Below are positions 1,077-53,572 of a stretch of 64,000 bases of DNA, piece after piece. A model generated the notes under the pieces. It had not been told where the DNA came from. It did not search any database and saw nothing but the letters and a program-made list of their open reading frames with translations. Positions within the stretch are counted from its first letter, which is position 1. The number at the start of each line of letters is the position of its first letter. A program made the position numbers and the translations under genes. Source of the DNA: Candidatus Staskawiczbacteria bacterium (GTDB lineage Bacteria > Patescibacteriota > Minisyncoccia > Minisyncoccales > Staskawiczbacteraceae); NCBI GenBank assembly GCA_041661545.1, contig JBAZUH010000001.1:403877-467876 (forward strand). Direction: 5' to 3'.

Positions 1077-1877
1077 ATGTTTGATTATATCTCGGCAATA
1101 ATATTGGGCATTGTAGAAGGGTTTACAGAATTTTTACCCATTTCTTCTACTGGTCACCTTATTTTAGTAAATCAATTTATAACTTTTGATAAAGATTTTA
1201 CCTTCTTATTTGATATTGTTATACAACTAGGAGCAATTCTAGCTGTTGTTGTTTATTTCTGGAAAAGACTTTGGCCATTCAAAAAAGATATTACTGAAGG
1301 TAAAAAAATATGGGCAATTTGGTTTAAAACAATAATAGGAGTATTGCCAGCTGTATTATTGGGGGCATTATTTGCTAGCAAAATAGAAGAAAAATTATTT
1401 AATCCCTGGACAGTTGCCATTACCCTATTAATTGGTGGAATAATTATTTTATTTATTGAAAATAAAAATCATCAACCAAAAATTACAGATATTACTAATT
1501 TAAGCTATAAAATGGCTTTTTTAATAGGATTGGTTCAGTGCTTGTCTATGATTCCTGGAACTTCACGGGCTGGAGCAACAATTATAGGTGCTATGATTTT
1601 TGGAGCTTCGCGATTAGTGGCAACAGAATTTTCTTTCTTTTTGGCTATTCCAACAATGATTGCTGCATCAACCTGGAGCTTATTTAAGTATAAAGCACTT
1701 TTAAATGTTAACCAGAGCATTACCCTTTTAATTGGCTTTATTGTGTCTTTTATTGTAGCATTAGCAGTAGTAAAGTTTTTGATAAATTACGTTCAAAAAA
1801 ATAACTTTAAAATATTTGGTTATTATAGAATAATATTAGGAATAATAATTATTTTATCTTTTTTATGGATATATTAA
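1077..1877 (+). CDS. uppP: undecaprenyl-diphosphate phosphatase (BacA/UppP)
   Basis: 266 aa, multi-TM. N-terminal EGFTEFLPISSTGHLIL motif and PGTSRAGATI motif typical of UppP. Confidence 0.9.
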   Translation: MFDYISAIILGIVEGFTEFLPISSTGHLILVNQFITFDKDFTFLFDIVIQLGAILAVVVYFWKRLWPFKKDITEGKKIWAIWFKTIIGVLPAVLLGALFASKIEEKLFNPWTVAITLLIGGIIILFIENKNHQPKITDITNLSYKMAFLIGLVQCLSMIPGTSRAGATIIGAMIFGASRLVATEFSFFLAIPTMIAASTWSLFKYKALLNVNQSITLLIGFIVSFIVALAVVKFLINYVQKNNFKIFGYYRIILGIIIILSFLWIY

Positions 1878-2194: not shown

Positions 2195-4183
2195 ATGATG
2201 AAATATATAGAATCCCATGTTCCCGGTGATGATTCCGAAGAAATTCCAGAGGCTACCATTCCGCACGCTGAAGAAACGCCAGAACTTGATAAGCCCAAAA
2301 GCGAACCAAGAGGACAAAACCTCAAAAAAGCCGAGGAGCTTAAAGAATTATTTATTAATTTAACTATTGATAAAGGGGAAGGAGATAAGAAAGAATCTGT
2401 CTTTTTTAGCGAAGAAGAAGCAATCGCCCTGTCTCAAAATGAAAGGTTGCAGGCGCATCTTTCAACAACCTTGCAACTATTTATTACCCAACGGTTTATT
2501 CAAAATACTGATAATCTAAAAGTATCTTTAACAGAATGGAAAAAAGCTGTGATGAAAGCACCACAACTTCTGCAACAAAAACCCGAGGCTCTCAACGCTA
2601 ATGCTGAGGAGTCTGCTGTAGCTTTGGGGATAACAAAACAACAGTTTATGGAAGCTGTGATGAAAAAACCATCGCTGTTGCAACAAAAACCCGAGACTCT
2701 CAACGCTAATGCCGAGAATTCTGCCGTAGCTTTGGGGATAACAAAACAACAGTTTATGGAAGCTGTGATGAAATCGCCACAATTATTGCAACAAAAACCC
2801 GAAACTCTCAACGCTAATACTGAAGAGTCTGCTGTAGCTTTGGGGATAACAAAACAACAGTTTGTAGAAGCTACGATGAAGGCACCATCACTATTACAAC
2901 GGAAACCCGAGACGCTCAACGCTAATGCCGAAGAGTCTGCTGTAGCTTTGGGAATAACAAAACAGCAGTTTGTAGAAGCTACGATGAAGGCACCAGCACT
3001 ATTACAACAAAAACCCGAGACGCTCAACGCTAATGCTGAGGAGTCTGCTATAGTTTTGGGAGTATCGAAACAACAGTTTGTAGAAGCGGCGATGAAAGCA
3101 CCACAACTTCTGTATCAAAAACCTGAAACTCTTAACGCCAATGCTGAGGAATCTGCTGTAGCTTTGGGAGTATCGAAACAGCAGTTTATAAAAACTGCGA
3201 TGAAGATGCCACCACTATTGCAACGGAAGCCCGAGGCTCTCAACGCCAATGCTGAAGAGTCTGCTGTAGCTTTGGGAGTATCGAAACAGCAGTTTATAAA
3301 AACTGCGATGAAGGCACCACCACTATTGCAACGGAAACCCGAGGCTCTCAACGCTAATGCTGAGGAGTCTGCTGTAGCTTTGGGAGTATCAAAACAGCAG
3401 TTTGTGAAAACTGCGATGAAGGCACCAGCACTATTACAACAAAAACCCGAGACGCTCAACGCTAATGCCGAAGAGTCTGCTGTAGCTTTGGGAATAACAA
3501 AACAACAGTTTGTGGAAGCTGTGATGAAGGCACCAGGGCTATTATACCAAAAACCCGAGACTCTTAACGCTAATGCTGAGGAGTCTGCCGAGGCTCTAGG
3601 TATAACCAAACAGCAGTTTATAGAAGCTGTGATGAAGATGCCACCACTATTGCAACGGAAGCCCGAGGCTCTCAACGCCAATGCTGAGGAGTCTGCTGTA
3701 GCTTTGGGAATAACAAAACAGCAGTTTGTAGAAGCTGTGATAAATATGCCAGCACTATTACAACAAAAATCCGAGACTCTTAAAAATAAATTTAATATAT
3801 ATGAAAATATGATAGACCGTCCGCTGGAGATTGTACTTAACCACCCGATCTTACTTGGTATGGCCCCTGAGAGAATACTAGGTAGCTATATTGTATGTAA
3901 AATAAATCATAAAGAATTGTCAGCGAGAAGTTTTATGCCTAATCCATTGACATCTGCGCATAAAATATTAGCCGAATCTGATTTTAAAAAATTTGAACTA
4001 GCCTACAACTATCTCAATGAATTATCAAGAAAAATTAGAGATAGGAGCAGAAGGGGGGGTAGCGAAACTGAAGTTTATAACGAAATGCTTAAATTTACAG
4101 AAAGATTTTTTGGCAAAAAGAACGAACCTATAACACAAGAGCAACTTAACACGTTTGAAAGATACATTGAAAAACATTTATAA
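2195..4183 (+). CDS. tandem 36-residue helical-repeat protein (mTERF-like repeat spacing), function unknown
   Basis: 662-aa ORF with an acidic N-terminus, 11 near-identical 36-aa repeats plus degenerate flanking repeats, and a roughly 130-aa unique C-terminal region. Confidence 0.85.
   Translation: MMKYIESHVPGDDSEEIPEATIPHAEETPELDKPKSEPRGQNLKKAEELKELFINLTIDKGEGDKKESVFFSEEEAIALSQNERLQAHLSTTLQLFITQRFIQNTDNLKVSLTEWKKAVMKAPQLLQQKPEALNANAEESAVALGITKQQFMEAVMKKPSLLQQKPETLNANAENSAVALGITKQQFMEAVMKSPQLLQQKPETLNANTEESAVALGITKQQFVEATMKAPSLLQRKPETLNANAEESAVALGITKQQFVEATMKAPALLQQKPETLNANAEESAIVLGVSKQQFVEAAMKAPQLLYQKPETLNANAEESAVALGVSKQQFIKTAMKMPPLLQRKPEALNANAEESAVALGVSKQQFIKTAMKAPPLLQRKPEALNANAEESAVALGVSKQQFVKTAMKAPALLQQKPETLNANAEESAVALGITKQQFVEAVMKAPGLLYQKPETLNANAEESAEALGITKQQFIEAVMKMPPLLQRKPEALNANAEESAVALGITKQQFVEAVINMPALLQQKSETLKNKFNIYENMIDRPLEIVLNHPILLGMAPERILGSYIVCKINHKELSARSFMPNPLTSAHKILAESDFKKFELAYNYLNELSRKIRDRSRRGGSETEVYNEMLKFTERFFGKKNEPITQEQLNTFERYIEKHL
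2579..3766 (+). repeat. 11 x 108-bp in-frame tandem repeat array
   Basis: Each unit starts aaacccgag (KPE). The period is exactly 108 bp from 2579 to 3766. Unit 12 (from 3767, KSETLKNKF) is degenerate. Confidence 0.95.
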
Positions 4184-4920: not shown

Positions 4921-5910
4921 ATGATTGTAGATGATGTAAAAATAATGGTTTATGCTGGTCATGGCGGAAAGGGCATGTCAACTTTTAGTAAAATAAAATT
5001 TGTTAAAGGCCCAACTGGTGGAAATGGCGGAATAGGAGGAAATGTATTTCTTGAGGGTTGTGCTGATTTGGGGGCTTTACGACAATTTAGATTCAAAAAA
5101 GACTATAAAGCCAAAGATGGTGAAAATGGTAAATCTGGTTTACACGATGGTAGTAATGCCGAAGATTTTATTTTAAAGGTTCCCGTAGGTACTGTTTGTC
5201 ATAATTTGACTAAGCATACAGATATTGAAATTACTAAAATTGGGCAACGAGAAATGGTAGCAAAAGGTGGAATAGGAGGAAAAGGAAATTGGTACTTTAG
5301 AAGTGCAATTAATACAAGCCCAAAAGAATTCCAAACAGGAAAGCCTGGCGAGTGTTTTGAATTGCATCTAGAATTAAAAATGATTGCTGACGTTGGATTT
5401 GTTGGCTTACCAAACGTAGGAAAATCAAGTCTGTTAAACGAATTAACCAAAGCCAACGTAAAAGTAGCTAATTACCCTTTTACTACGCTAGAGCCCAATT
5501 TAGGCGTATATTACGACCTAATATTAGCCGACATTCCCGGCATTATTGAGGGTGCATCTACCGGCAAAGGACTTGGCATTAAATTTTTACGCCACATAGA
5601 AAGAACAAAAGTTTTATTTCATTTTATTTCTGCTGAATCTGTTGACCCCCTATTAGATTACAAAACTATAAGAAACGAACTTGAAACGTATAGCAATGTC
5701 TTGTTAGAAAAACCTGAATATATATTTTTGAGCAAAGCAGATATTATAGATAAAAATACTATTTTAAAAATAGAAAAAGATTTCAAAAAAATAAAAAAGG
5801 AAATTATACCTATTTCAATAATAGATATAGAAAGCTTAGATTTTATCAAAAAAACACTAAATACTTTAATTAAAGAAAAAACAGTGGTAAAATTAAATAA
5901 AGATTATTAA
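4921..5910 (+). CDS. obg: GTPase Obg/CgtA
   Basis: Gly-rich Obg fold (GGNGGIGGNVFL), G1 GLPNVGKSS, G3 DIPG, and the NK/SKAD region. Confidence 0.9.
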   Translation: MIVDDVKIMVYAGHGGKGMSTFSKIKFVKGPTGGNGGIGGNVFLEGCADLGALRQFRFKKDYKAKDGENGKSGLHDGSNAEDFILKVPVGTVCHNLTKHTDIEITKIGQREMVAKGGIGGKGNWYFRSAINTSPKEFQTGKPGECFELHLELKMIADVGFVGLPNVGKSSLLNELTKANVKVANYPFTTLEPNLGVYYDLILADIPGIIEGASTGKGLGIKFLRHIERTKVLFHFISAESVDPLLDYKTIRNELETYSNVLLEKPEYIFLSKADIIDKNTILKIEKDFKKIKKEIIPISIIDIESLDFIKKTLNTLIKEKTVVKLNKDY

Positions 5911-7650: not shown

Positions 7651-9477
7651 TTATATTTTTTTATGAAGCTCTTTTGCTTGCTTAGTAAATTCTTTAATTA
7701 ACTCATCTCTTTTTTGCTCATTATCTTCGAGCTTCACTTCTCCAAATAGGTTACTTAAGTTGTTTCTCAATTCTATATCTTTTAACAAAGAAAGGCAAAG
7801 TTGAATTTCTTCTGAGTTGTCTTCTCCATATTCTACTTCAGCTTTTAGTGCTAATTCGTCTAATACATTTTTATATTCATTTTTAGCTTTGCCCACAGAG
7901 CTAGATATATCGGCAAAAATTGCTTCTGGGTCATTACCTCTTTGTTGCGCACTTGCCTTAATGCTGTTTATTAAATTTTTTGTTTCATCACAAAAAAGAC
8001 AGTGATGCGACTCTTCAATTAAATCTAAATTTTCTGGATTTTTTAAAACTAATGAAACTATTTTATCTTCTAATAATTTTTTGCGCCCTTCGGCTGTAAA
8101 ATTATTTTTATTAATTGGTAAAATCTTTTCTAGGCCAGCTTTATTTGTTAATTTATCATTACTTTGATTATTCTTTTTCCAATCATTAAAATCTGCTCTT
8201 ACATCTTCTTCTTTAACATTAAATATTTGAGATAGTTTTTGAAATTGCTTTGCTTGTTCAATTATGTTTGGAATTATATTTATTCTAGGATAAAGAGCAT
8301 ATTTTATTTCTTTTCTTCCCTGAGAAGTATCTTTATCAAACTTTAAAAGGGCAGAGTTAAAAGAAAAATCCATTATCTCTACAATAGTTTTTAATGATTC
8401 TTCCCAAATTTTAGGATTTTCTAAAATAATTTCTGCGGGGTCTTTTGCCCCTAAATAACTGTGTATTACTTTAATATTAAAACCTTGAAATATAGCTAAA
8501 TCAATTCCTCTTTTTGTTGCTGTGTCTCCGGCAGAATCCATATCAAAAGCTAAAACTAAATTATCTGTGTACCTTTTTAAAATGTTTAAATGCCTTTCTG
8601 TTAAAGCAGTGCCAGAAACTGCAACTGTATTTTCAAACCCTGCTTGCTGACACATTATTGCGTCTGTATTGCCTTCTGTTAAAACACACTGATTGTTCTT
8701 TCTAATAGCTAATTTTGCAAAATTTAATCCATAGAGAACATTGCTTTTATCGTAAAGTAGTGTCTGGGGCGTATTAATATATTTGGCTATTACTGCATCT
8801 TTTCCCCCTACGGGGGATCTCCCGAAGGGAGAAAAGACTCGGGCAGTAAAACCAACTACTTGCGAATTTAAATCAAAAATAGGAAAAATAATCCTTCCAC
8901 GAAATCTGTCGTAAGGGTTATTTCCCTTGTCAGATGGCACAGCTAAACCAGCTTTTACAATTTCTTGGCGATTGTATCCCCTGCCCACCAAAAAATCAGA
9001 TAGCCCCTGCCAAGTATCTGGAGAATAACCTAGTCTCCATTTTTTTATACTTTCTTCTATAATGCCTCTTTTCAACAAATACTCTTTGGCCTCTTTGCCA
9101 TAACCTGAACCTTCTAATTGTTTTTCAAAAAAAGAACAAGCTAGGTCGCAAATTTCATATAACCTTTTTCTTTCACTAGTTGCTTGAGGATTTTCGCGCT
9201 TTAATTCCACCCCTGCTTTATTAGCTAAAAGCCTTAAAGCATCTCCAAATTCAATGCCCTCAATTTCTTTTATAAATTCAAAAATGTCTCCACCCTTTCC
9301 ACAGCCAAAACATTTCCACATTTGCCTGCCCGGACTTACAAAAAAAGAGGGCCCTTTTTCAGAATGAAATGGGCAAATTCCTCTATAGTTAATTCCCGTT
9401 TTTGAAAGCTTAACATATGAACCCACAACATCTAAAACATTAAGCTTGCTCTTTATTTCTTCTATTTGTGAATCCAT
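7651..9477 (-). CDS. dnaG: DNA primase
   Basis: Zn ribbon CPFHSEKGPSF...CFGCG and TOPRIM motifs (EGNTDAI, DMDSAGD). Confidence 0.95.
   Translation of the reverse strand: MDSQIEEIKSKLNVLDVVGSYVKLSKTGINYRGICPFHSEKGPSFFVSPGRQMWKCFGCGKGGDIFEFIKEIEGIEFGDALRLLANKAGVELKRENPQATSERKRLYEICDLACSFFEKQLEGSGYGKEAKEYLLKRGIIEESIKKWRLGYSPDTWQGLSDFLVGRGYNRQEIVKAGLAVPSDKGNNPYDRFRGRIIFPIFDLNSQVVGFTARVFSPFGRSPVGGKDAVIAKYINTPQTLLYDKSNVLYGLNFAKLAIRKNNQCVLTEGNTDAIMCQQAGFENTVAVSGTALTERHLNILKRYTDNLVLAFDMDSAGDTATKRGIDLAIFQGFNIKVIHSYLGAKDPAEIILENPKIWEESLKTIVEIMDFSFNSALLKFDKDTSQGRKEIKYALYPRINIIPNIIEQAKQFQKLSQIFNVKEEDVRADFNDWKKNNQSNDKLTNKAGLEKILPINKNNFTAEGRKKLLEDKIVSLVLKNPENLDLIEESHHCLFCDETKNLINSIKASAQQRGNDPEAIFADISSSVGKAKNEYKNVLDELALKAEVEYGEDNSEEIQLCLSLLKDIELRNNLSNLFGEVKLEDNEQKRDELIKEFTKQAKELHKKI
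8804..8832. repeat. G+C-rich double hairpin embedded in frame in dnaG
   Basis: ccccc-tac-ggggg then tctccc-gaa-gggaga. Encodes FSPFGRSPVGGK at a position where E. coli DnaG is shorter (comparison from memory). Confidence 0.8.
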
Positions 9478-10880: not shown

Positions 10881-11957
10881 TTATTTTCCTAAAATGTTTA
10901 AAGTAACTTCCATTTGTCTGACCGTATACTCCATATCTTCTTCTGGCCTTCCGTCTTGTCTGCCTCTTTGATATGAACCCATCAAATCAGTCAAATAATC
11001 TATCAACTTGGCTTGCCGGTCTTCTAATTTTGCTTCTTTTTTTGTTTTAAGGCTTTCTTCATTTTGGTGCACCTTGTGCCATTCTTCAATTGCTTCATTA
11101 ACCTTATCTGTAATCTCTTTTGCCCGTGCAACTTCGGGCGCAGAGGGAGTTCTATCAAAATATTTTTTTTCGGGATTTCTTACTACAGAAAATTCATTAT
11201 AAAATGTTCTGCCAAACTGCTCAGCCATCATTGTTGCAAATTCGTCGGGAGCTAAATATTCGCTGGTTACAGCAACGGCTTTTGTCCACTCGCCTTCTTT
11301 TCTTTGACACGAAGCCACATCTCTAAAATGTAACTGGTCATAATTAGAATTTCCATTTTCATCATCATGAAACTTTAATTCTCTCAGCAATAATTCTCTT
11401 TCTTTTTCTAATGCGCCCAATTTTCCCATTTTTGTTTCCGTAAGTCGTTTCTGTTTAATAGTTCGCGCTATACCGGTGTTTAATTTTTTTATTTCGTCGT
11501 TTTTTACCCTAATTGCCAAAACAAATGGTTCTCGTTCTTTGAAAAACTTTTCGTAGTATACTTTATTAAAAAGCTCAACATCATCACTCTTTTTTCTGTT
11601 GCCCCACAATACATCCAGCATTCTATATATTTCTTTTTTTAATTCTTGATGTTCCACAGCATCCAATCTCTCCTTAAATTTTCCACTTTCAAAAAGACTG
11701 TGCAAACACCTTGCCATGAATTCCTCTCTCGTCTTCTCGTCAAGCCCAGCTACAACTTCACCCAAGCTTCTCTCGCGTTTTTCTGAAGAATCACTAAATC
11801 TTCCATCGTCTGTTTGAGGGAAAATCTTTTCTCTAATAAATTCTGGCAAACTTCTAAAAAGCGCCGAAACACTTCCAGGAAAATCTTTCAGTTCTGCAAT
11901 TTCTTGCTCTTGGACTAAAACATTGTCTGTATTGTCACTTTTACTAATTTCTCCCAT
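10881..11957 (-). CDS. hypothetical highly charged helical protein
   Basis: 358-aa ORF with no recognisable motifs. Moderately elevated G+C. Divergent from the ATP-grasp gene. Confidence 0.6.
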   Translation of the reverse strand: MGEISKSDNTDNVLVQEQEIAELKDFPGSVSALFRSLPEFIREKIFPQTDDGRFSDSSEKRERSLGEVVAGLDEKTREEFMARCLHSLFESGKFKERLDAVEHQELKKEIYRMLDVLWGNRKKSDDVELFNKVYYEKFFKEREPFVLAIRVKNDEIKKLNTGIARTIKQKRLTETKMGKLGALEKERELLLRELKFHDDENGNSNYDQLHFRDVASCQRKEGEWTKAVAVTSEYLAPDEFATMMAEQFGRTFYNEFSVVRNPEKKYFDRTPSAPEVARAKEITDKVNEAIEEWHKVHQNEESLKTKKEAKLEDRQAKLIDYLTDLMGSYQRGRQDGRPEEDMEYTVRQMEVTLNILGK

Positions 11958-14923: not shown

Positions 14924-16861
14924 TTACCACCCCCCTCCTCCTCCGCCACCACCGCCACCACCAGAAGAACCGCCTCCGCCACCACCAGAGCTAGATCCAG
15001 GAGGCGTAGAGGCAGATGCTATAGAACTTGAAAATCCAGAATTAAAGTTTGATAATGCTCCAGCTGTATATATTGGACCAGAAAACCATGCTGGATGATG
15101 GTCTTGCATTTGATTCTTATTAAAAATATCTGTAAATTGCTCGGCCCATTCATTTTCAACGCCTAAAGCTAAAGCATATGGTAAATATTTCTCAAAAAGT
15201 TCTGGTGTTCTCTCTGGAGGATTAAAAAAATTCATTCTATCTTTTTCTGTTACCGATAAAAACCATTTAAATCCTTTTACTTCTTCCACTAATCGCAATC
15301 CCATTTCTGTATATTGCCTTAATAAGAAATAAAAAATAATAGCCAATAAAATAACCACTGCTAGTAAAATTACAGTGCCCATAGAAGCCATACTATAAAC
15401 AATTGTAATTGCAAAAATTTCTCCAGCTAAAAATGGCAGAAAAAATAAACTTAGAAAAATTGCACCAAAAAGGTTTTTAATTTTATTTTTTTGGTTATTA
15501 AAAAACTTTTTCCACAACGCTGTTATTTGTCCAAAAATTACTACTATTCCAAAACTCCATCCAATCAACCAAACTATTATAAAAATTAAAGGAAAAATCA
15601 TACCAGCTTCACTGCTGTTAATAACCGACAATAATAATGGTATAAAAGATAAAACAATTCCTAAGAATAGCCAATTAATATTATTTGAAAAATAATTTTT
15701 GTCATACTCTTTCATCAAGGAAATGGTTAACTCCTCAGAAGCATCTTTTACTTCTAAAGTATAACCATCTAAATCAACTATTTCTTTTTTAACAAATAGT
15801 TGGGTCATCATATTTTTCTGAATTTTGTTTAAACTGCTATCTGGTTCTTTTACTTTTGTTATATAATAATGAACTTTCTTTTTATCAATTTTTATAAAAC
15901 CTTTAACTGCTAAATTAATAATTTCTGAAGTAAAACATTTGTTATCAAACCTTCTATTCACCAAATATCTAATTGATGAAGGAATCATTTTTGAAGGGGG
16001 TTTGTACATGGGTATAATACTTTTGGGTTTTGGATCTCTGCCAAATTTATTCCAAACGTACAAATAATAGAAAAAAACTAACAATAATCCAAATATCCCC
16101 AAAATAAATCCCAAATTATCTTGAAACCACCAAATTCTTTTCTGAAACAACGAAGGCTCAACAATTAATCCCTTGGGCCAACCAACAACAATTGTAAAAT
16201 CTTCTCCATTGTTTATTACTTGAGAATTTTTGAATTCAATTATACTTTTATTTCCTTCTGCATAGATGTTTGCTTGAGCGGGCACCCCCTTGCTCCCAAC
16301 ATAGCCCACATAAGAGGCTGTTGTTAGTTGATTTTTTACAGAATTAAAATCAAAGGGCAAAATAACTGTTGCGCTTGATTTAATTATAGGAAAACTCCAG
16401 TCACTACCAGTAACATTCCAATATAATTCGTCGTGATCTGAAAAAAATCCAATTTCCCTATTAACTCTATAAGAAAGCTTATAATCATAAACTCCAGGAT
16501 AAATTAAAACGTCAGAAGCTCCAATATATATTCTTATTCCATTTTTTAAATTTTCTGTGTGATAAGGTTCACTATTACCATTTCTTTGCACCCCAAGCAA
16601 ATCAAATTTAATCTTATAGTTATTGCCTAATTTATCTTTATATTTTGTTGGGAAATCTCTATATATACCATGCTCAATGGAATTGCCTGTTGCAATAACA
16701 CTTATTTCTTCTGTAACTAAAAGAGAACCAGATTTTTCAACGGTTATATTGCTAGAAAAATTAGTTATCTGCTCTTGATTATAGTTCTGAGCAAAAACAA
16801 AACTACCCGTTGCAAAACAGGATGCAACAACGACAAAGATTATGAATAATTTTTTGAACAT
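14924..16861 (-). CDS. DUF2207 domain membrane protein
   Basis: 645 aa with a signal/TM, a central TM cluster and a Gly/Ser-rich C-terminal tail. Located immediately downstream of lemA, as is typical for this pair. Confidence 0.8.
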   Translation of the reverse strand: MFKKLFIIFVVVASCFATGSFVFAQNYNQEQITNFSSNITVEKSGSLLVTEEISVIATGNSIEHGIYRDFPTKYKDKLGNNYKIKFDLLGVQRNGNSEPYHTENLKNGIRIYIGASDVLIYPGVYDYKLSYRVNREIGFFSDHDELYWNVTGSDWSFPIIKSSATVILPFDFNSVKNQLTTASYVGYVGSKGVPAQANIYAEGNKSIIEFKNSQVINNGEDFTIVVGWPKGLIVEPSLFQKRIWWFQDNLGFILGIFGLLLVFFYYLYVWNKFGRDPKPKSIIPMYKPPSKMIPSSIRYLVNRRFDNKCFTSEIINLAVKGFIKIDKKKVHYYITKVKEPDSSLNKIQKNMMTQLFVKKEIVDLDGYTLEVKDASEELTISLMKEYDKNYFSNNINWLFLGIVLSFIPLLLSVINSSEAGMIFPLIFIIVWLIGWSFGIVVIFGQITALWKKFFNNQKNKIKNLFGAIFLSLFFLPFLAGEIFAITIVYSMASMGTVILLAVVILLAIIFYFLLRQYTEMGLRLVEEVKGFKWFLSVTEKDRMNFFNPPERTPELFEKYLPYALALGVENEWAEQFTDIFNKNQMQDHHPAWFSGPIYTAGALSNFNSGFSSSIASASTPPGSSSGGGGGGSSGGGGGGGGGGGW

Positions 16862-21183: not shown

Positions 21184-21207
21184 CTATAGCGAGGCAACAA
21201 ACTATTG

Positions 21208-21290
21208 TAGCGAGCCAAATAAATTTTTGGAGGAGGGGCAATCGCCTTGGGGACATTCCCCCGACGAGCAAAAATTTGATTTGGCGAGCG
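21208..21290. repeat. 83-bp interspersed palindromic repeat, copy A (groES-groEL spacer)
   Basis: tagcgagccaaataaatttttggaggaggggcaatcgccttggggacattcccccgacgagcaaaaatttgatttggcgagcg. Differs by about 5 nt from copy B at 31695-31776. Confidence 0.9.
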
Positions 21291-21332
21291 AAAATAAAAG
21301 TTTGTTACCGAGCGAAGAAATTATTTTGAGCG

Positions 21333-21860: not shown

Positions 21861-24680
21861 CTACAGATACCTTCCGGTATAACTTTTCTTTATTTTTGCA
21901 ATATCGCCAGGCGTTCCCTCGCCAACAATTGTACCGCCACCATCACCTCCTTCGGGGCCCAAGTCTATTAACCAATCAGCATTTTTAATTAATTCTATAT
22001 TATGCTCAATTACCAAAACTGTATTTTTTTTATCAACTAATCCCCCCAATACAGAAATTAATTTTTTAATATCGTCAAAATGCAACCCAGTTGTAGGCTC
22101 GTCTAAAATATAAAGAGTTTTTCCAGTGCCCTTGCGCGAAAGTTCTGTGGCTAATTTTACTCTTTGTGCTTCTCCTCCAGACAACGAAGTTGCTGCTTGC
22201 CCTAATTCAACATAAGAAAGTCCAACCTCTTTTAATGTTTTTAACTTTTCATACAGGCCTGTGATATTTTTAAAAAACTCCATTCCTTCTTCAACTGTCA
22301 TTTCTAAAACTTCGGCAATGTTTTTGTCTTTATAAGTTACTTCTAAAACTTCTTTGCTATATCTTTTACCATGACATTCTTCACATTCAACATAAATATC
22401 TGGTAAAAAATACATTTCTACTTTTTTTTGCCCCTGACCTTCGCAAGCCTCACATCTTCCTCCCTTTACATTAAAAGAAAACCTGCCAGCTGAATAACCT
22501 CTAACTCTTGCTTCTTTTGTTTTAGTAAAAATATCTCTTATATGAGAAAAAGCTCCGGTATATGTTGCCGGGTTGCTTCTTGGAGTTCGGCCAATAGGTG
22601 ACTGGTCAACTAAAACAACTTTATTTATGTTTTCAATTCCTAAAATTTCTTTATGAGCTCCTGGCTCATCTTTGGCTCTATAAAATTTCTTTAACAAAAA
22701 TTTTGCTAAAATATCATTTACCAAAGACGATTTTCCAGATCCTGAAACACCAGTAACACAAACAAATTTTTCTAAAGGAATTTTAACATCTATATTTTTT
22801 AAATTATGTTCGCTGGCTCCTACGATAGTCAAATAATTTTGAGCCCTATCCCGCCCCTTTGGGGCGAGGCTCGCCCGCCCTTTGGGCGAGGCGGCTACTT
22901 TTAATTTACCAGATAAATATTTTCCAGTTAAACAATCTGATTTTAAAATTTCTTTATATGTTCCTTCAAAAACAACTTTGCCACCGTGTTTCCCAGCTCC
23001 TGGCCCTATATCAACAACCCAATCAGCTGCTTGCATTGTTTGGGGGTCGTGCTCAACAACCACAACTGTGTTGCCTAATTCTTTTAGTTTTTCTAATGTT
23101 TCTATTAATTTATGTTGATCTCTTGCATGCAAACCAATAGAAGGTTCATCTAATATATACAAAACTCCAGATAATTTAGAGCCAATTTGAGTGGCCAATC
23201 TTATTCTTTGCTCTTCTCCGCCAGCAAGTGTGCCAGCTTTCCTAGATAGAGTTAGATAGGACAAACCAACATCATTTAAAAACTGTGTCCTATCAATTAT
23301 TTCTTTTAAAATTGGCTGACAAATTTTTGTTTCCCCGGCATTTAATTTTTGCCCCGCCGATTGCGGGGTCCCGCTGAGGCGGGAAAAGAAATCTCTTACT
23401 TTATCTATAGGCAAATCAACAATTTTATCAATTGATAAGTCATTAACTGTAACTGCTAAAACTTCTTGTTTTAATCTTTTGCCTTTACATTTTGGACAAA
23501 CTTTTATAACCATGTATTGTTCAATTTCTTGTCTTGTCCAATCAGAATCTGTTTCATGATATCGTTTTTCTAAATTAGGAATTACTCCTTGAAATTCTCC
23601 ATCACCATTTAAAATAATATCAACAAATTTTTTGGGCAATTCTCCTATTTCTTCATCTAAAGAAAACTTATATTTTTCTGCCAAACCAGACAAAATAGAA
23701 TAATAATATCCTTGTCTGCCAACTTTATGCGAAGCTCTGCTCCATGGCCATATTGCACCTTCAGCAATTGTTAGTCTTTTGTTTGGAATTACCAATTCTG
23801 GGTCAACTTCTAGTTTTTCTCCAAGGCCCGTGCACTCTGAGCAAGCACCATAAGGATTATTAAAAGAAAATAACCTAGGCTCTAATTCTGGCAAAGAAAT
23901 TCCACATTCTTCACAAGCAAAATGCTCAGAGAAAATTAAATCATCTTTTTTACTTTGACCAACAATAACTATTCCTTTGCCAAGATGCAAAGCTGTTTCT
24001 AAAGAATCTACTAGCCTAGATCTTTCTAAATCTTTATTTAAAATTAATCTATCAACAACAACTTCTATATCGTGTTTTTTTTGCTTATCCATTGGTCTAT
24101 CAAGAGATTCTTCAATCAAAAAAACCGTTCCGTCAATTCTTACTCTAACAAATCCACCTCTTTGAATTTCTTCTAAAACTCCATGATGTTCTCCTTTTTT
24201 ATTTCTTATAACTGGCCCTAAAATTGTAATCTCAGAGTTTTTTGGTAATTTTAAAACTTGCGTAACAATTTGGTCAACTGTTTGCCTAGAAATTAATTTT
24301 CCACACTTTGGGCAATGAGGTTTTCCTATTCTTGCATACAAAAGGCGCAAATAATCATAAATTTCTGTAATTGTGCCCACAGTTGAACGTGGATTATGAG
24401 TTGATTTTCTTTGGTCTATAGAAATTGCCGGAGAAATTCCTTCTATTTTATCTACATCGGGCTTGTCCATTACTCCTAAAAACTGTCTTGCATAAGCAGA
24501 CAAACTTTCTACATATCTTCTTTGCCCTTCGGCATAAAGCGTATCAAAAGCCAGCGATGATTTTCCCGAGCCAGAAAGCCCAGTAATAACAATCAACTTA
24601 TTTTTAGGTAAATCTAAGTCTATATTTTTTAGATTATGAACTCTTGCCCCTCGAATTTTAATGAATTCGTTTTGTGACAT
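21861..24680 (-). CDS. uvrA: excinuclease ABC subunit A
   Basis: Two ABC modules ([18 protein letters not shown]), two LSGGE signatures and zinc-finger cysteines. Confidence 0.97.
22852..22890. repeat. tandemly duplicated G+C-rich hairpin unit in frame in uvrA
   Basis: cgcccctttggggcgagg followed by ctcgcccgccctttgggcgagg. Encodes [13 protein letters not shown]. Confidence 0.8.
23352..23384. repeat. G+C-rich double hairpin in frame in uvrA
   Basis: ccccgc-cgatt-gcgggg then tcccgc-tgag-gcggga. Encodes [12 protein letters not shown]. Confidence 0.8.
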
Positions 24681-24772: not shown

Positions 24773-26062
24773 ATGGAGAAGTTTAAATTTATCACTGGGC
24801 TAAACTTTGAGAAGCTCCCTAAAACATCGGGGGTGTATTTATTTTATGGACCAAACCCTAAGCCCTATGCTCTAAGCCCTATTTATATAGGAAAAGCTAT
24901 AAATATAAAAAGTAGGGTTAAAAATCATTTTCAACAGTCAAGCTACCGCGACAATCTTTTTATAGATAAAGTTAACAAAATTGGCTATATAGAAACTAAT
25001 TCAGAAATTGAGGCTTTAATTTTAGAAGCAAATTTAATTAAAAAACACCAGCCAAAATTTAATGTTGTATGGAAAGATGACAAAAACTATTTTTATGTGG
25101 CCATTGTCCAGAATAAAGATAAAATTCCTTTTGTCTACATAACCCACCAACCCTCCTTCGCTAAAGCTTCGGAAGGGCAAGCCCCAAAATACATTGGGCC
25201 TTTTGTTGAGGGCACAGCACTTAAAAAAACATTAAAATATTTGAGACGGGCATTTCCCTACTACACACAGGCAAAACATCCAAAAACTCAATGCACTTGG
25301 TGCCATTTGGGGCTTTGCCCCGGCCCTCACCCAGATTTACCTGCATATAAAAATAATCTTAAAAAATTAACCTTAATCCTTCAAGGAAAGCGAAGCGCTG
25401 TTTTAAATAGTTTAAAACGAGAGATGAGGCAATTTTCAAATGAACATAAATTTGAAGAAGCTGGAAAAATAAGAGACCGAATTTCTAATTTACAGCAAAT
25501 TATGTCTCACAGGGGCGTAATAAGCAACTCAAAAGAAATAGTCACAAATTTGACGGCCGTCAAAAATGCACCATTTTCTTCTTTGACCAAAATTCAGAAT
25601 GCACACAGAATTGAATGTTATGATATCTCAAATATACAAGGCAAATTTGCAACCGGATCTATGGTTGTATTTACTAATGGCGTAGCCGACAAGGGCCAAT
25701 ACAAAAAATTTAAAATAAAAATGGGGGATACTCCTAACGATATCGCCATGCTAAAAGAAGTTTTAACAAGAAGGTTTAATCACCCCGAGTGGAAGTATTC
25801 CGAAGTAATTTTAATTGATGGAGGAAAAGCTCAATTAAACATAGCCATAAAAGTTAAAAAACAATTTAATAAAATTATTCCATTAATTATTTCCATTGCA
25901 AAAGGCCGGCGAGAATTATTTATTGAAGGCAAAGACAAACCAATACCTCTAAAAAATTTGCCACGTGAAATTTATAACTTAGTTTTGCAATTAGACAACG
26001 AAGCCCACCGCTTTGCTGTTACTTATCATAAGAAGTTAAGAAAAAAATCTTTGTTGCAATAA
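24773..26062 (+). CDS. uvrC: excinuclease ABC subunit C (short form lacking the C-terminal HhH)
   Basis: GIY-YIG (GVYLFYG...IYIGKA), a UVR-like helix region (EHKFEEAGKIRDRI) and an RNase H-like endonuclease domain (IECYDISN). Ends at 429 aa. Confidence 0.9.
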   Translation: MEKFKFITGLNFEKLPKTSGVYLFYGPNPKPYALSPIYIGKAINIKSRVKNHFQQSSYRDNLFIDKVNKIGYIETNSEIEALILEANLIKKHQPKFNVVWKDDKNYFYVAIVQNKDKIPFVYITHQPSFAKASEGQAPKYIGPFVEGTALKKTLKYLRRAFPYYTQAKHPKTQCTWCHLGLCPGPHPDLPAYKNNLKKLTLILQGKRSAVLNSLKREMRQFSNEHKFEEAGKIRDRISNLQQIMSHRGVISNSKEIVTNLTAVKNAPFSSLTKIQNAHRIECYDISNIQGKFATGSMVVFTNGVADKGQYKKFKIKMGDTPNDIAMLKEVLTRRFNHPEWKYSEVILIDGGKAQLNIAIKVKKQFNKIIPLIISIAKGRRELFIEGKDKPIPLKNLPREIYNLVLQLDNEAHRFAVTYHKKLRKKSLLQ

Positions 26063-29730: not shown

Positions 29731-29755
29731 TCCCCTCGCAGTTGTCGCGGTGGCG

Positions 29756-29775
29756 CCTGCCTGCCGGCAGGCAGG
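29756..29775. repeat. 20-bp perfect G+C palindrome cctgcctgccggcaggcagg
   Basis: Lies 15 bp upstream of tRNA-Leu. A near-identical palindrome lies in frame at 53504-53523. Confidence 0.85.
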
Positions 29776-29789
29776 GAACTGGTAAGCCT

Positions 29790-31694: not shown

Positions 31695-31776
31695 AGCGAG
31701 CCAAATAAATTTTTGAAGAAGGGGCAATCGCCTTGGGGACATTCCCCCGACGAGCAAAAATTTGATTTAGCGAGCG
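31695..31776. repeat. 83-bp interspersed palindromic repeat, copy B (8 nt upstream of the trpS ATG)
   Basis: agcgagccaaataaatttttgaagaaggggcaatcgccttggggacattcccccgacgagcaaaaatttgatttagcgagcg. Confidence 0.9.
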
Positions 31777-31783
31777 TCATAAT

Positions 31784-32761
31784 ATGAGAATATTTTCGGG
31801 AATAAGGCCAACCGGAGGCCTACATATAGGAAATTATTTAGGAGCCATAAAGCAATGGATTGACTTACAAGAAAAAAATGAATGTATTTTTTGTATTGTT
31901 GATTTACATGCAATTACAACTCCTTATGACCCAAAAGAACTTCAAAAAAATATCTTAGAAGCCACAGCAATTTATTTGGCAGCTGGCATAGACCCTGAAA
32001 AATCTATTATATTTGTGCAATCAGATGTAAAAGAACATGCAGAATTAGCTTGGCTTTTAGAAACTATAACCCCAATGGGCGAACTTTCTAGAATGACTCA
32101 ATTTAAAGAAAAATCTAAACAATATAAAGATTATATAAATGCAGGATTATTTAACTACCCAGTTTTAATGGCCGGTGATATTTTATTATATAGATCAAAG
32201 GCCGTACCTGTTGGCAAAGACCAAGAGCAACATGTTGAATTATCACGCACAATTGCCAGAAAGTTTAACCAAAAATTTGGGCAAATTTTTCCAGAGCCAG
32301 AAACCATTTTGCCTAAAACCGGAGCTAAGATAATGAGCTTAACAAATCCAAAGAAAAAAATGTCTAAGTCTGACGACCCTAAAAGCTGTATTTCACTTTT
32401 TGATACGCCAGAAGATATTACAAAAAAAATAATGTCTGCAGAAACTGATTCTGGCAAAGATGTTGTTTATAATGTTACCAAAAAACCTGGCATTTCTAAC
32501 CTTTTGACTATTTATAGCTTGCTAACAAATACGCCAATTCCTGAAATTGAAAAACAATTTAAAGGAAAAGGCTATGGAGATTTTAAAAAATCTTTAGCCA
32601 AAGTTATAGTTGAATATTTAGAACCATTTAGACGCAAACAAAAAGAGCTACAAACCCGCGACGTTTATGTAAAAGATATTTTAGACAAAGGCGCTGCTCG
32701 CGCCCGCACAATTGCCGAAACTACAATGGCCGAAGTCCGCTCCAAAATGGGATTAGTATAA
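31784..32761 (+). CDS. trpS: tryptophan--tRNA ligase
   Basis: Class I HIGH variant (GGLHIGNYLG) and KMSKS. Confidence 0.95.
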   Translation: MRIFSGIRPTGGLHIGNYLGAIKQWIDLQEKNECIFCIVDLHAITTPYDPKELQKNILEATAIYLAAGIDPEKSIIFVQSDVKEHAELAWLLETITPMGELSRMTQFKEKSKQYKDYINAGLFNYPVLMAGDILLYRSKAVPVGKDQEQHVELSRTIARKFNQKFGQIFPEPETILPKTGAKIMSLTNPKKKMSKSDDPKSCISLFDTPEDITKKIMSAETDSGKDVVYNVTKKPGISNLLTIYSLLTNTPIPEIEKQFKGKGYGDFKKSLAKVIVEYLEPFRRKQKELQTRDVYVKDILDKGAARARTIAETTMAEVRSKMGLV

Positions 32762-32775
32762 ATTAAAACAAATAA

Positions 32776-32806
32776 AAACAGCCCCGCTAAGGCGGGGCCA
32801 TTTTTT
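32776..32806. terminator. bidirectional terminator between trpS and the PMM/PGM gene
   Basis: gccccgc-taag-gcggggc with flanking A- and T-runs. Confidence 0.8.
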
Positions 32807-41396: not shown

Positions 41397-41426
41397 AAAG
41401 CGCCCCGATTTTCATCGGGGCGCTTT
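41397..41426 (-). terminator. rpoC terminator
   Basis: aaagcgccccga-ttttca-tcggggcgcttt, a 12-bp stem. Confidence 0.8.
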
Positions 41427-50604: not shown

Positions 50605-52655
50605 TATTTGATTAATTCTAAGAATTGTTGTTCAGTTAAAATTGTTACACCAAGTTGGCGGGCGCGGTCGGCCTTGCTTCCTGGTTCTGAACCAACTATA
50701 ACATAACTAGTATTTTTTGAAACAGATTCTGCGGTGTCGCCACCCAATTCTCTTATTTTTGCTTTTGCTTGGTCACGGCTCATTGTTTCTAGGCTTCCAG
50801 TTAAGACGAAGGTTTTGCCTACTAATTTCGCCGAAGCACCGGCTGAGGCGCCCGGTCGAATGACCGGGTCAATTTTCACAAATTTTTCTAATTTATCTAT
50901 AAATCTAGTATTATCTTTGTCGGCAAACCATTCATAAATTGATTTTGAAACAACTGGCCCAATATCTAAAATTGCTTCAAAATCTTCTAATTTTGCATCT
51001 TTAATTTTTTTAATATTACCAAAATGTTTTGCCAAATCAATTGCAGTTTCTTCGCCAACATTTCTAATGCCCAAAGCATAAATAAACTTTGCTAAAGAAA
51101 TTTCTCTTTTTTCTTGTATTGATTTTATTAAATTTTCTGCCGATTTTTCTGCAAACCCCGATACAAAAGCCTCCGGCTTTTTACGGGGCAAGCCGTCTTC
51201 TAAATTCACGATGTCTCCCACTTTAAGCTCAAATAAGTCCGAGGAATCATTAACTAAGCCATAATCAAATAGTTTATCAATAATTTTGGGGCCCAAGCCA
51301 TCTATATTAAAAGCTGTGCGCGAAACAAAATGATAAAAATTTCTTCTTTGTTTGGCAATACATTTTACATTTGGGCACCGCAAAATTGCTTCACCTTCTA
51401 ATTTTACCAGCTTTGCCGAACAGCTAGGGCACTTTTCTGGCATTTTAAAAGTTTTTTCATGACCAGTTCTTAGTTCTGGCAAAACTTTTATAACATTTGG
51501 AATAACATCTCCCGCCCTTCCCACTATTACAGTATCTCCAATTTTTAAACCTAGTCTTTTAATTTCGTCTTCGTTGTGCAAAGTTGCCCTTGTTATTGTA
51601 ATTCCAGTTACTTGCACGGGCTCTAGCACTGCAACAGGCGTAATGGCCCCTGTTCTGCCCACCTGGACCCTTACATCTACAACTTTAGTAGTTGCCTCAG
51701 CTTGCGGAAATTTATAAGCTATAGCCCCCCTTGGCGCCTTGCCAACAACTCCTAATTCTTCAAAAATTTTATTATTATTTATTATTACCACCACGCCATC
51801 AATTTCATAATCTAATTTTTCTCTTTCTTGTATCCAATGCTCTCTAAATTCAAAAACTTCTTTTAGCGATTTGCAATATTTATTATGTTTATTAGTTTTA
51901 AACCCTAATTCTTTTAATATTTTATGTTTTTCTTCGTGAGTAACAACTTCGTTGCTAATTAAATCATAAGCAAAAGAATCTAACTTTCTACCTGATGTTA
52001 TTTTGGGGTCTAACTGCCTAACCGAACCTGCTGCGATATTTCTTGGATTAGCATAAACTGGCAAACCTTTTGCTTGTTGCTCTTTATTTATTCTATTAAA
52101 TTCTTTTTTAGTAATAAAAACCTCACCCCTCACAACAAGTTGTTCGGGAATTTTCAATTTTAAATTTTCAATTTTCAATGGAACTGCCTCAACTGTTTTT
52201 AAATTTTGAGTGATATCTTCACCAACACTGCCGTCCCCCCTAGTAGAACCTGTTATAAAATTTCCATTTTTATAAATTAGCTCAATGGCTAAGCCATCAA
52301 TTTTTAATTCACAGTAATAATTTATATTGGATTTTTCTTTTTCGGGCACTAATTTTATAAATCTTTCTTGCCAATCTTGCATATCTTCTTGCGAGAAAGC
52401 ATCATTAAAAGAAAGCATTTTATGCAAATGTTTTATTTTTTTAAATTCTTTTAAAGGCTTGCCCCCAATTCTCTGAGTTGGCGAATCTGAAGTTATTAGC
52501 TCAGGATATTGTTGCTCTAAATCAAAAAGTTCCTTTTTCAAGGAGTCTAGTGCAAAATCAGAAATTTCTTGCTTATCTAAAACATGATAAAGATAACGAT
52601 GATGATTTATCGTTTCTCTTAATTTTTTTACTCTTTGCTCAATATCTTGTTTCAT
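50604..52655 (-). CDS. ligA: NAD-dependent DNA ligase
   Basis: Adenylation motif CELKIDGLA, a Zn finger (CPSC...C), HhH repeats and a C-terminal BRCT (GKTFVLTGSL). Confidence 0.97.
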   Translation of the reverse strand: MKQDIEQRVKKLRETINHHRYLYHVLDKQEISDFALDSLKKELFDLEQQYPELITSDSPTQRIGGKPLKEFKKIKHLHKMLSFNDAFSQEDMQDWQERFIKLVPEKEKSNINYYCELKIDGLAIELIYKNGNFITGSTRGDGSVGEDITQNLKTVEAVPLKIENLKLKIPEQLVVRGEVFITKKEFNRINKEQQAKGLPVYANPRNIAAGSVRQLDPKITSGRKLDSFAYDLISNEVVTHEEKHKILKELGFKTNKHNKYCKSLKEVFEFREHWIQEREKLDYEIDGVVVIINNNKIFEELGVVGKAPRGAIAYKFPQAEATTKVVDVRVQVGRTGAITPVAVLEPVQVTGITITRATLHNEDEIKRLGLKIGDTVIVGRAGDVIPNVIKVLPELRTGHEKTFKMPEKCPSCSAKLVKLEGEAILRCPNVKCIAKQRRNFYHFVSRTAFNIDGLGPKIIDKLFDYGLVNDSSDLFELKVGDIVNLEDGLPRKKPEAFVSGFAEKSAENLIKSIQEKREISLAKFIYALGIRNVGEETAIDLAKHFGNIKKIKDAKLEDFEAILDIGPVVSKSIYEWFADKDNTRFIDKLEKFVKIDPVIRPGASAGASAKLVGKTFVLTGSLETMSRDQAKAKIRELGGDTAESVSKNTSYVIVGSEPGSKADRARQLGVTILTEQQFLELIK
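51156..51188. repeat. hairpin module ccccga-stem/loop-ttttacgggg(caag) in frame in ligA
   Basis: ccccgatacaaaagcctccggctttttacgggg. Encodes LPRKKPEAFVSG. Confidence 0.8.
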
Positions 52656-52657
52656 AA

Positions 52658-53572
52658 TTAATTACTACAATAAAACTCAGCAATATCGGATTTATTTTCA
52701 TTGCCCCCGTTATCTGTAGCTATAAGATAAACCCAATACGATGTATTATTATCCATGTTTGACCAAGGCTTGCTATAATTTCCATCTCCCAGCGACTTCA
52801 ATGTTAATTCAGACGTCTCGCTATCTACTATGTACATCTTAACGGTGTTTACTCCATCCTTATCATACACATCGGCTGAAACTGTATTATCGCCTCCGCA
52901 ATCAATTTGAAAATTACTTATCGTTGGTTCTATATTTTTTGTTTCTATAACTATTTGAATTTGCCTACCAGCTCCACCGTAAAAACCCTTTGAACTAATT
53001 TCAAATTTATCAACATCCCCCGCACTATAAACTCTGGCTTCTGTAGAATAAGATATATCGTCGTCAGAGCTGTTTGTATCGCCAGCGTTGATAACAGAAC
53101 TAAAAGAAATTGTACAATCGTCACAAACTTCTGGATTGCAACCAATAGTAGGATTGTTGTCCCCTGGTTGCGGAGATTCAAAACCATTGTTGGGCTGGCA
53201 ATAAATACTATGCTCTGTGGGCGAGGTGCTGTTAGGATCAGACTTACAAGCAGTATTATAATTATTGCTTATATCATACATAGAGCATAAACCTCTTTCT
53301 GCTTTTTTGCCATTTGTTATTGTTGGCCTAACATTCCAATCATAATAAAGAACTTTTTCAATTCCGCTATCAGCGGCGTAAAGTCCAATTACAGAATTGC
53401 CTATATTTCTTATAACTTTTATTTCGCTGTATAAAAGCGCGCTTATAGACAAAACCACAGATAAAATAATTATCATTATAAACAGCGTGATAATTAATGA
53501 AACGCCTGCCTGCGCAGGCAGGCCATTTTTATTTCTTTTTAATTTTTCTTTATTGTTCTGCATCATATACAT
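52658..53572 (-). CDS. PilX-like minor pilin / pilus-associated protein
   Basis: N-terminal hydrophobic helix GVSLIITLFIMIIILSVVLSISALLYSEI, as in the PilX N-domain. The start could be at M3/M4. Last gene of the minor-pilin set. Confidence 0.6.
   Translation of the reverse strand: MYMMQNNKEKLKRNKNGLPAQAGVSLIITLFIMIIILSVVLSISALLYSEIKVIRNIGNSVIGLYAADSGIEKVLYYDWNVRPTITNGKKAERGLCSMYDISNNYNTACKSDPNSTSPTEHSIYCQPNNGFESPQPGDNNPTIGCNPEVCDDCTISFSSVINAGDTNSSDDDISYSTEARVYSAGDVDKFEISSKGFYGGAGRQIQIVIETKNIEPTISNFQIDCGGDNTVSADVYDKDGVNTVKMYIVDSETSELTLKSLGDGNYSKPWSNMDNNTSYWVYLIATDNGGNENKSDIAEFYCSN
53504..53523. repeat. G+C palindrome gcctgcctgcgcaggcaggc in frame in the PilX-like gene
   Basis: Encodes GLPAQAGV just before the TM helix. 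Twin of 29756-29775. Confidence 0.85.

Follow-up and report, generated by a model that had tools for sequence, protein, structure and literature searches.

What is a GC-rich double hairpin doing inside the reading frame of a DNA primase gene in an AT-rich bacterial genome? The question is raised by dnaG in a 64-kb window (the whole stretch of DNA analyzed here) of a 738-kb contig from Candidatus Staskawiczbacteria, a member of the Candidate Phyla Radiation (CPR), and again by uvrA in the same window, where an insert of the same design is found. The window has a GC content of 34% and a steadily negative GC skew. Its DnaG is 100% identical to a protein assigned to a Candidatus Staskawiczbacteria metagenome-assembled genome, and related loci bear the same taxon name. 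The comparison includes a survey of 1.6 Mb of related DNA in 114 related loci; loci are labelled L001 and onward, and proteins P0002 and onward. We consider it probable that the inserts in dnaG and uvrA are copies of miniature insertion elements made of GC-rich hairpins, which form a single dispersed family or several related ones in Staskawiczbacteria and in CPR bacteria related to them. The features and the alleles that occupy the same junctions in relatives are collected in Table 1.

Double hairpins in dnaG and uvrA

In the coding orientation the dnaG element, which we label type D, reads GTC TTT [TCTCCC-TTC-GGGAGA][TCCCCC-GTA-GGGGGA] AAA GAT. It consists of two 15-nt hairpins with 6-bp stems that abut directly, with a T-run on the 5′ side and an A-run on the 3′ side, and it encodes, in frame, the peptide F-SPFGRSPVGG-K. 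The RNA is predicted to fold with an energy of -27.7 kcal/mol (z = -4.2), and the flanking U-run and A-run are also able to pair across the entire insert. The original prediction had recognized an in-frame, G+C-rich double hairpin at this site, and that description holds; its coordinates become 8803-8832 in place of 8804-8832, and the "ga" that was taken as a spacer between the hairpins belongs to the 6-bp stems. The type C insert in uvrA, TTC TTT [TCCCGC-CTCA-GCGGGA][CCCCGC-AATCG-GCGGGG] CAA AAA, is composed of a 16-nt and a 17-nt hairpin and is also in frame, with a T-run before it and an A-run after it and a predicted RNA folding energy of -22.9 kcal/mol (z = -3.0). It had been proposed as an architectural twin of the dnaG insert, and the common layout of a T-run, two hairpins and an A-run bears this out; both inserts lie within otherwise AT-rich genes.

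Structures of this kind are in excess over the composition of the window. GC-rich hairpins number 40 vs 11.4 ± 2.9 in dinucleotide-preserving shuffles, and adjacent double hairpins number 3 vs 0.07 expected from the same shuffles. The three doubles are the dnaG element (8803-8832), the type C element in uvrA (23352-23384), and a second cluster in uvrA (22848-22895), which we label type E. A scan of the window with Rfam returned two tRNAs and nothing else.

Table 1. Host genes, hairpin elements and alternative alleles at the dnaG and uvrA junctions
Feature	Location	Strand	Size	Sequence or remark
dnaG, DNA primase, host gene	window 7651..9477	-	608 aa	
dnaG double-hairpin insert, type D	window 8803..8832	-	30 nt (10 codons)	
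uvrA, host gene of two elements	window 21861..24680	-	939 aa	
uvrA double-hairpin insert, type C	window 23352..23384	-	33 nt (11 codons)	
uvrA second hairpin cluster, type E	window 22848..22895	-		linker between two ATPase halves
ligA candidate element	window 50828..50870	-		linker between HhH and BRCT domains
bacA/uppP double hairpin	L001 9472-9501		30 nt	TCTCCC-TTC-GGGAGA|TGTCCC-GTA-GGGACA; type-D relative
dnaG junction allele	L024			CCCCGC-GAA-GCGGGG|TCCCGTC-CGGA-GGCGGGA
dnaG junction allele	L121			CCCGCC-CAC-GGCGGG|TCCGCC-TCG-GGCGGA
dnaG junction allele	L122			CCCCGCC..|TCCCGCC..
dnaG junction allele	L123			CCCGCC-CGA-GGCGGG|TCCGCC-TTA-GGCGGA
dnaG junction allele	L017			TCCGCC-CAA-GGCGGA|CTAGCC-TCG-GGCTGG
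dnaG junction allele	L124			decayed copy
uvrA type C junction allele	L056/L058			single hairpin
uvrA type C junction allele	L046			TCCGCC-CTA-GGCGGA|CCCGCC-TCG-GGCGGG
uvrA type C junction allele	L062/L072			TCCGCC-CTA-GGCGGA|TCAGCC-TTT-GGCTGG

Alignment with orthologues places the dnaG insert in a gene that most relatives carry uninterrupted. About 105 of 120 DnaG relatives read ...ARVF-KDADKKET-AKYINTP, with a short AT-rich loop at the insert site, and in 23 of the 31 related loci that are readable here an 8-residue loop (KDADKKET or a close variant) follows straight after the Phe codon. The closest relatives, L001 and L004 (80.5% nucleotide identity), have no insert and read ATT TTT|AAA GAT GCT GAT AAA AAA GAA ACT; measured against them, the window's dnaG has gained 10 codons exactly at TTT|AAA and is missing 3 codons slightly downstream, a net gain of 7 residues. 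The insert itself is found in L002/L003, where it is identical to the window's 30-mer at 30/30 positions. Over the whole gene, the window and L002 share 73.8% nucleotide identity and 53.5% identity at third positions, and third-position identity in the 30-codon blocks flanking the insert is 52-57%. In a neighbor-joining tree, the insert-bearing DnaG proteins are scattered, and the window's protein is nested among the insert-free P0002-P0006. At least seven double-hairpin alleles occupy this one junction, in the window and L002 (which share one), L024, L121, L122, L123, L124 and L017.

The same pattern is seen at the type C site in uvrA. Here 76 of 80 UvrA relatives read FF-EKLPxKLNAGE or a similar sequence with no hairpin, and in the window's gene TTT is followed by 11 hairpin codons, with about 4 codons missing downstream, again a net gain of 7 residues. 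Four alleles are present at this junction. One further relative, L055, has SALGK in AT-rich codons and no hairpin at this position, which we read as a decayed copy. The expectation that the inserts would prove lineage-specific and in frame was thus borne out by the DnaG and UvrA alignments, with most relatives having no hairpin. At neither focal site are the same residues encoded in a form that lacks hairpin potential, with the caveat of SALGK in L055.

The second uvrA cluster extends these observations to another part of the gene. On the coding strand type E reads GCCGCC TCGCCC-AAA-GGGCGG GCGAG CCTCGCCCC-AAA-GGGGCGGG AT, and its core of ~33 nt (GCCGCCTCGCCCnAAAGGGCGGGCGAGCCTCGCCC) occurs at the same uvrA linker in L018 and at a different uvrA site (~aa 362) in L053, L059 and L094. 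The aa 362 site provides a clean example of insertion, in which TTT|GAA is converted to TTT[30 nt]GAA with no duplication. At the same site in L054 (~5200-5270), a double element has a 21-nt GC hairpin nested within its first hairpin, in the 3′ arm, an insertion of the kind that is seen with mobile repeats.

Where these peptides would sit in the folded proteins was judged by alignment to solved structures. The dnaG insert falls in a loop that has a conserved strand on one side and the KYxNSP motif on the other; of the uvrA inserts, one lies in a stretch that cannot be aligned and the other in the linker between the halves. An AlphaFold model renders the dnaG insert as a coil between two strands, though its confidence (mean predicted local distance difference test score 67, <50 in the insert region) is too weak for placement. 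Both focal sites are poorly conserved stretches of variable length for which alignment to solved structures is poor or fails, and location in surface loops is consistent with this.

Dispersed copies, target and reading frame

The comparisons show the polarity of insertion, the dispersal of the elements, a preferred target with no duplication of it, and compatibility with the reading frame of the host gene. Among the 1.6 Mb and 114 loci, the most common stems are TCCGCC (20), CCCGCC (18), TCCCGC (12), CCAGCC (7) and CCCCGC (7). Every TCCGCC stem (20/20) and every CCAGCC stem (7/7) is inside an open reading frame (ORF), as are 248 of the 331 hairpins found in the survey. The intergenic hairpins are mostly terminator-like or belong to tRNAs, and the in-ORF families are distinct from these. 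The double-hairpin pattern could have been unique to the two focal sites; instead, further copies are found in dnaG, uvrA, groEL and bacA of relatives.

One example of dispersal is the unit TCCGCC-nnn-GGCGGA|CCAGCC-nnn-GGCTGG (peptide SAQGGPASGW), which with its close variants occurs at at least eight unrelated sites: dnaG aa 218, 385, 398 and 534, uvrA aa 362 and 434, groEL aa 435, and an ORF of 248 aa. In L046, uvrA and groEL on the same contig share the identical 30-mer TCCGCCCTAGGCGGACCCGCCTCGGGCGGG (positions 11297 and 15211), and the groEL genes of the window and of most other loci are without this insert. The groEL copy in L018 has TCCGAC...GTCGGA in place of TCCGCC...GGCGGA, a compensatory pair change that leaves the stem intact. 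A relative of type D is located in bacA (uppP) of L001, where it encodes the peptide CVPTGHLPKGE in codon phase 2 and in the orientation opposite to the coding strand, and where a 10-codon stretch is missing 8 codons downstream of the insert. At the protein level, BacA of L003 (7658-8467) has a near-identical 10-residue insert at the same position; bacA of the window (1077-1877) has neither the insert nor the deletion. One match to the 30-nt family pattern was found in viral contigs, at L120 4944-4973 (an IMG/VR contig of 53% GC), located after AAATTT, just upstream of a GGAGG ribosome-binding site and ATG, and apparently outside any ORF. The window's own type-D 30-mer was not found in the viral contigs.

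A candidate element in ligA of the window reads CCCGGTC-ATTC-GACCGGG on the coding strand, followed by a second GC stem, and encodes the peptide DPVIRPGASAGASA. Stems of the family xxGGTC-ATTC-GACCxx also occur close to tRNAs and, in L098, in the linker of uvrA. Insertion at ligA is unproven because there is no net difference in length from E. coli LigA.

The individual copies conform to a simple plan. The unit is a hairpin of ~15-17 nt with a 6-7-bp stem, a C-rich 5′ arm, a G-rich 3′ arm and 3-5 nt in the loop; commonly, two units abut and together span 30-33 nt, with stems of >80% GC. Every copy examined is either 3n long or has its frame restored, and all are free of stops in the host frame. 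The encoded peptides are rich in Ser, Pro, Ala, Arg and Gly and follow [S/P]-x-x-G-[G/R] per unit. Deletions of 9-30 nt are present just downstream of inserts in dnaG, uvrA, groEL and bacA. In 1409 ORFs we count 234 hairpins and 17 adjacent doubles, while shuffling synonymous codons within genes yields ~76 and ~0.25, respectively. The synonymous shuffle removes two thirds of the hairpins and nearly all of the doubles, which places the structure at the level of the nucleotide sequence rather than that of the protein.

The sites share a target. In a listing of 17 rows, some of which are duplicate rows for the type-D element, TTT is immediately upstream in 12/17 and AAA or GAA is downstream in 10/17; the elements are located at junctions between a T-run and a purine followed by A, with the consensus TTT|RAA. 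The Phe codon is already present in the empty sites, and no target-site duplication was found at the clean insertion sites examined. When the copies are read with the T-initial hairpin first, the T-run is on that side in every copy. At non-palindromic targets (TTT|GAA) one orientation is seen, while the palindromic target in dnaG (TTT|AAA) carries elements in either orientation. These observations suggest that orientation follows the target and not the gene or an obvious replication strand. The canonical orientation lies on the G-rich strand in 10/12 copies, a count in which strand and coding direction are confounded.

Origin of the hairpins and comparison with known systems

If the inserts are copies of mobile elements, they would spread by a copy-and-insert process and would then persist as tolerated, translated passengers, in many cases offset by a small deletion just downstream, until they are replaced or decay under AT-biased mutation, in some cases leaving the peptide behind. 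One can speculate that a hairpin-recognizing enzyme acts in trans; the elements have terminal hairpins, leave their target unduplicated and insert 3′ of a short motif, all of which recalls single-strand HUH transposition of the IS200/IS605 type or by repetitive extragenic palindromic (REP) sequences and their REP-associated tyrosine transposases (RAYTs), and a similar process may be at work here.

Several observations weigh against an origin as dispersed insertion elements. A search for a transposase, a RAYT or another enzyme that might move the elements gave no candidate in 37 of the window's 61 ORFs of ≥70 aa (Pfam), from the 64 kb of the 738-kb contig, or among the pre-computed Pfam families of the neighbors. 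The loci compared include no case of presence and absence at the strain level, hence no recent event. Outside dnaG, the window's type-D 30-mer was encountered in one form, the diverged relative in bacA. The dnaG insert alleles share an altered downstream loop (KDAVI/KDAVV/KDVAI) in distant clades, which hints that alleles have been transferred by recombination rather than inserted independently. The best-defined family is in the sense orientation and phase 0 at 8/10 sites vs 23% of the TTT|RAA sites in ORFs; this bias exceeds what target preference would give, so selection on the peptide or some other factor is involved. Finally, the stems are drawn from a small vocabulary (YCC followed by GCC, CGC or CCC), and some of the likeness between families could therefore be convergence.

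We have weighed the dispersed-element interpretation against explanations that require no insertion element at all. The hairpins might have been made in place, by error-prone break repair or template switching (snap-back synthesis, for example) at fragile T-run/A-run junctions, with recurrence at hotspots that are often broken. The repeated use of the same junctions, the small deletions just downstream in four genes, the lack of target duplication and the small vocabulary of stems are all what such a process might leave behind. However, snap-back of AT-rich flanks would yield AT-rich palindromes and not stems of >80% GC, and an existing template must have been copied to give both the identical 30-mers in unrelated genes of one genome and, at eight or more sites, a two-hairpin unit whose loops (CAA, TCG) are conserved; this makes formation in place rather unlikely. 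The hairpins could instead be host regulatory structures, acting as intragenic attenuators or terminators, ribosome pause sites, or stabilizers of the mRNA, and kept by selection in dnaG and uvrA. The strong predicted folding and perfect stems, the compensatory pair change in groEL of L018, and the identity of the 30-mer in two diverged dnaG genes would suit a regulatory role. An attenuator had in fact been suggested by the original prediction, and this part of it fails because the T-run precedes and the A-run follows the hairpins on both strands. After the hairpins, the coding strand reads AAAAGA in dnaG and CAAAAA in uvrA, and the opposite strand reads GAAAAGA in both genes; there is no T/U tract after the hairpins on either strand, and a terminator scan calls neither site. 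The resemblance to intrinsic terminators is limited to a GC-rich stem-loop near a T-run, which here is upstream, with the A-run downstream. The closest relatives are without the inserts, other relatives have unrelated hairpins at the same codon, the same units recur at loop positions in many unrelated genes, and decayed copies are present in dnaG of L124 and uvrA of L055. Inserts that are present, absent, or swapped among close relatives are not expected of a conserved regulator, and we regard a regulatory function as unlikely.

The remaining two explanations concern the fate of the encoded peptide. Selection could favor Gly/Ser/Pro-rich loops for their flexibility, with the hairpins arising as a side effect of codon choice; the inserts do occupy variable loops and linkers and encode small, flexible peptides, and L055 keeps SALG- in AT-rich codons. 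Yet on synonymous shuffling the doubles essentially vanish and two thirds of the hairpins are lost, the peptides vary widely while the hairpin architecture is constant, and GC-rich codons are used against a genome of 34% GC, all of which makes this highly improbable. It is also very doubtful that the hairpins escape translation, either by excision as mini-introns or by ribosomal bypassing in the manner of the GC-rich "byp" inserts of some yeast mitochondria. In its favor, the present elements are GC-rich hairpins within AT-rich coding sequence, and in L002 a split tRNA-Ser-like sequence beside a GIY-YIG gene carries a double hairpin of the same vocabulary in its anticodon-loop region. Against this, a length of 3n or a restored frame free of stops in every copy examined, and the retention of the encoded peptide in a decayed copy, would not be needed if the segment were skipped.

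Among known systems, the dispersed elements most closely resemble, in concept, the GC clusters of yeast mitochondria and the double-hairpin or repetitive hairpin-forming elements (DHE/RHE) of Allomyces and sponge mitochondria, which are short, GC-rich (double) hairpins in an AT-rich genome, differ in presence or absence among close relatives, and form tandem or merged clusters. In yeast GC42, variation is concentrated in the loops while the stems are kept, and an AG target motif is present at both ends (PMC4478555). Elements of this mitochondrial kind are occasionally located within coding genes, in variable parts, and stay in the transcripts, according to PMC2800124 (citing Paquin et al. 2000). 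The mitochondrial elements differ in being organellar and mostly intergenic, whereas those described here are on a bacterial chromosome, predominantly in ORFs, after TTT without a duplication, and, in the best-defined family, codon-phased. With REP sequences and the bacterial interspersed mosaic elements built from them, their RAYTs, and IS200/IS605 elements, the inserts share 20-40-nt palindromes, targets that are not duplicated, a short specific motif beside the insertion point, and hairpins as the recognizable feature. By definition, REPs lie outside genes, and most have a GTAG or CGTC tag (PMC3733652). The present elements are intragenic, no RAYT or TnpA gene was seen in the ORFs scanned, and both orientations occur at the dnaG site. 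The one GTAG arises through a hairpin loop of the dnaG element (CCCCC-GTA-GGGGG), and types A, B, C and E have none. As in the IS200/IS605 type, insertion here is 3′ of a short motif and leaves no duplication (TTT|GAA at uvrA aa 362; TTT in 12/17 rows).

[quoted passage not shown] Like the inserts described here they are small elements that can land in ORFs, but here the length is 30-33 nt, there is no duplication and the arms are hairpin stems rather than element-wide terminal repeats. Rickettsia palindromic elements (RPEs) are ~100-150 bp long, each a single long imperfect palindrome, and are not GC-rich islands. The original prediction likened the dnaG and uvrA inserts to RPEs, and the likeness holds for insertion of a palindrome in frame into the genes of an AT-rich, reduced genome and its translation at tolerated positions; it does not extend to identity, since the present elements are 30-33 nt long, are built of 15-nt modules as two separate hairpins with 6-bp stems, differ in composition, and reside in a CPR host rather than in Rickettsiales. 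This separation from RPEs was made by description and not by sequence. In Coxiella burnetii, MITEs are small non-autonomous elements that can land in ORFs and alter proteins (PMC5896051).

These comparisons lead us to a bolder proposal, which we put forward tentatively as possible though doubtful: that the inserts represent an undescribed class of coding-adapted mobile DNA in CPR bacteria, made of 15-nt GC hairpin modules that are usually paired, home to TTT|RAA without duplication, are codon-phased, swap at hotspots, and are moved in trans by a hairpin-recognizing enzyme. The literature searched contained no account of elements like these from CPR bacteria. Were the proposal correct, such modules would keep writing new Ser/Pro/Ala/Gly loops into essential proteins (primase, UvrA, GroEL, UppP). 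If the dispersed-element interpretation holds, some of the smallest and most gene-dense bacterial genomes would contain active repeat families just 30 bases long, which survive through being translatable and remodel loops of essential, highly conserved proteins. In-frame palindromic elements, as known from Rickettsia and from mitochondrial GC clusters, would be extended to the CPR, the odd low-complexity peptides in proteins from CPR metagenome assemblies would in part be accounted for, and the inserts could serve as markers in strain-level population studies. The mechanistic question would become what puts a 30-nt double hairpin after TTT without duplicating the target. In practical terms, the inserts can mislead alignments, domain boundaries, and phylogenies of CPR core genes.

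Further observations in the window and its relatives

Hairpins of related composition are also found outside the families described above. A second type, GGAT-TCCCGC-nnnn-GCGGGA-ATGAC, has conserved flanks and occurs at L016 11312, L025 11330, L058 21571, L049 6259 and 9237, and L009 13442, in the dnaG C-terminal linker, the uvrA linker, and intergenic DNA; its translations (DSRFRGND, VIPAKAG...) may match low-complexity peptides in predicted proteins of many phyla. In L002 (8570-9150; also L046 ~22000-22480 and L031 4807/5222), a tRNA-Ser-like gene looks split. A GIY-YIG ORF is found together with an intact tRNA-Ser(GGA) between the copies of a direct repeat of ~50 nt; the repeat contains the GC double hairpin CCGCCAGCGGGCGGGG|TCCCGCyAACGGCGGGA in the anticodon-loop region; the 3′ tRNA half then follows, with more hairpins. 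This arrangement may be a mobile cassette in a tRNA gene.

The neighboring uvrC gene shows variation of its own. A hairpin at 25309 was considered as an insert and rejected, as it corresponds to the conserved CPGP motif. At 25154-25186 (+) the window's uvrC has SFAKASEGQAP after THQP, a position that is empty in several relatives and filled in others by unrelated peptides rich in Gly and Lys; the DNA there forms an imperfect hairpin at most. Two further insertion hotspots are present in uvrC of relatives, after YYT and after CPGP.

Elsewhere in the window, a near-identical intergenic repeat of ~90 nt with TTGGGGACATTCCCCCGA and spaced GCGAGC motifs occurs at ~21205-21300 and ~31695-31785, one copy between groES and groEL and the other upstream of a class I tRNA synthetase gene; it has no Rfam match at the gathering threshold. 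At the C-terminus of a DUF2207 protein (14924-16861), a GC-rich run at 14926-14964 (-) encodes a Gly-rich tail and is not a hairpin. A 662-aa protein at 2195-4183 (+), with a local GC content of 40%, contains four mTERF repeats (Pfam E = 5e-31). The mTERF family is mainly organellar and eukaryotic, and its presence in a CPR bacterium seems unusual. GC-rich hairpins at 29732-29782, 32781-32798, 41397-41426 and 53504-53523 are intergenic or at gene ends and are distinct from the in-ORF families; a T-run follows those at 32781 and 53504, and the set probably includes ordinary terminators.

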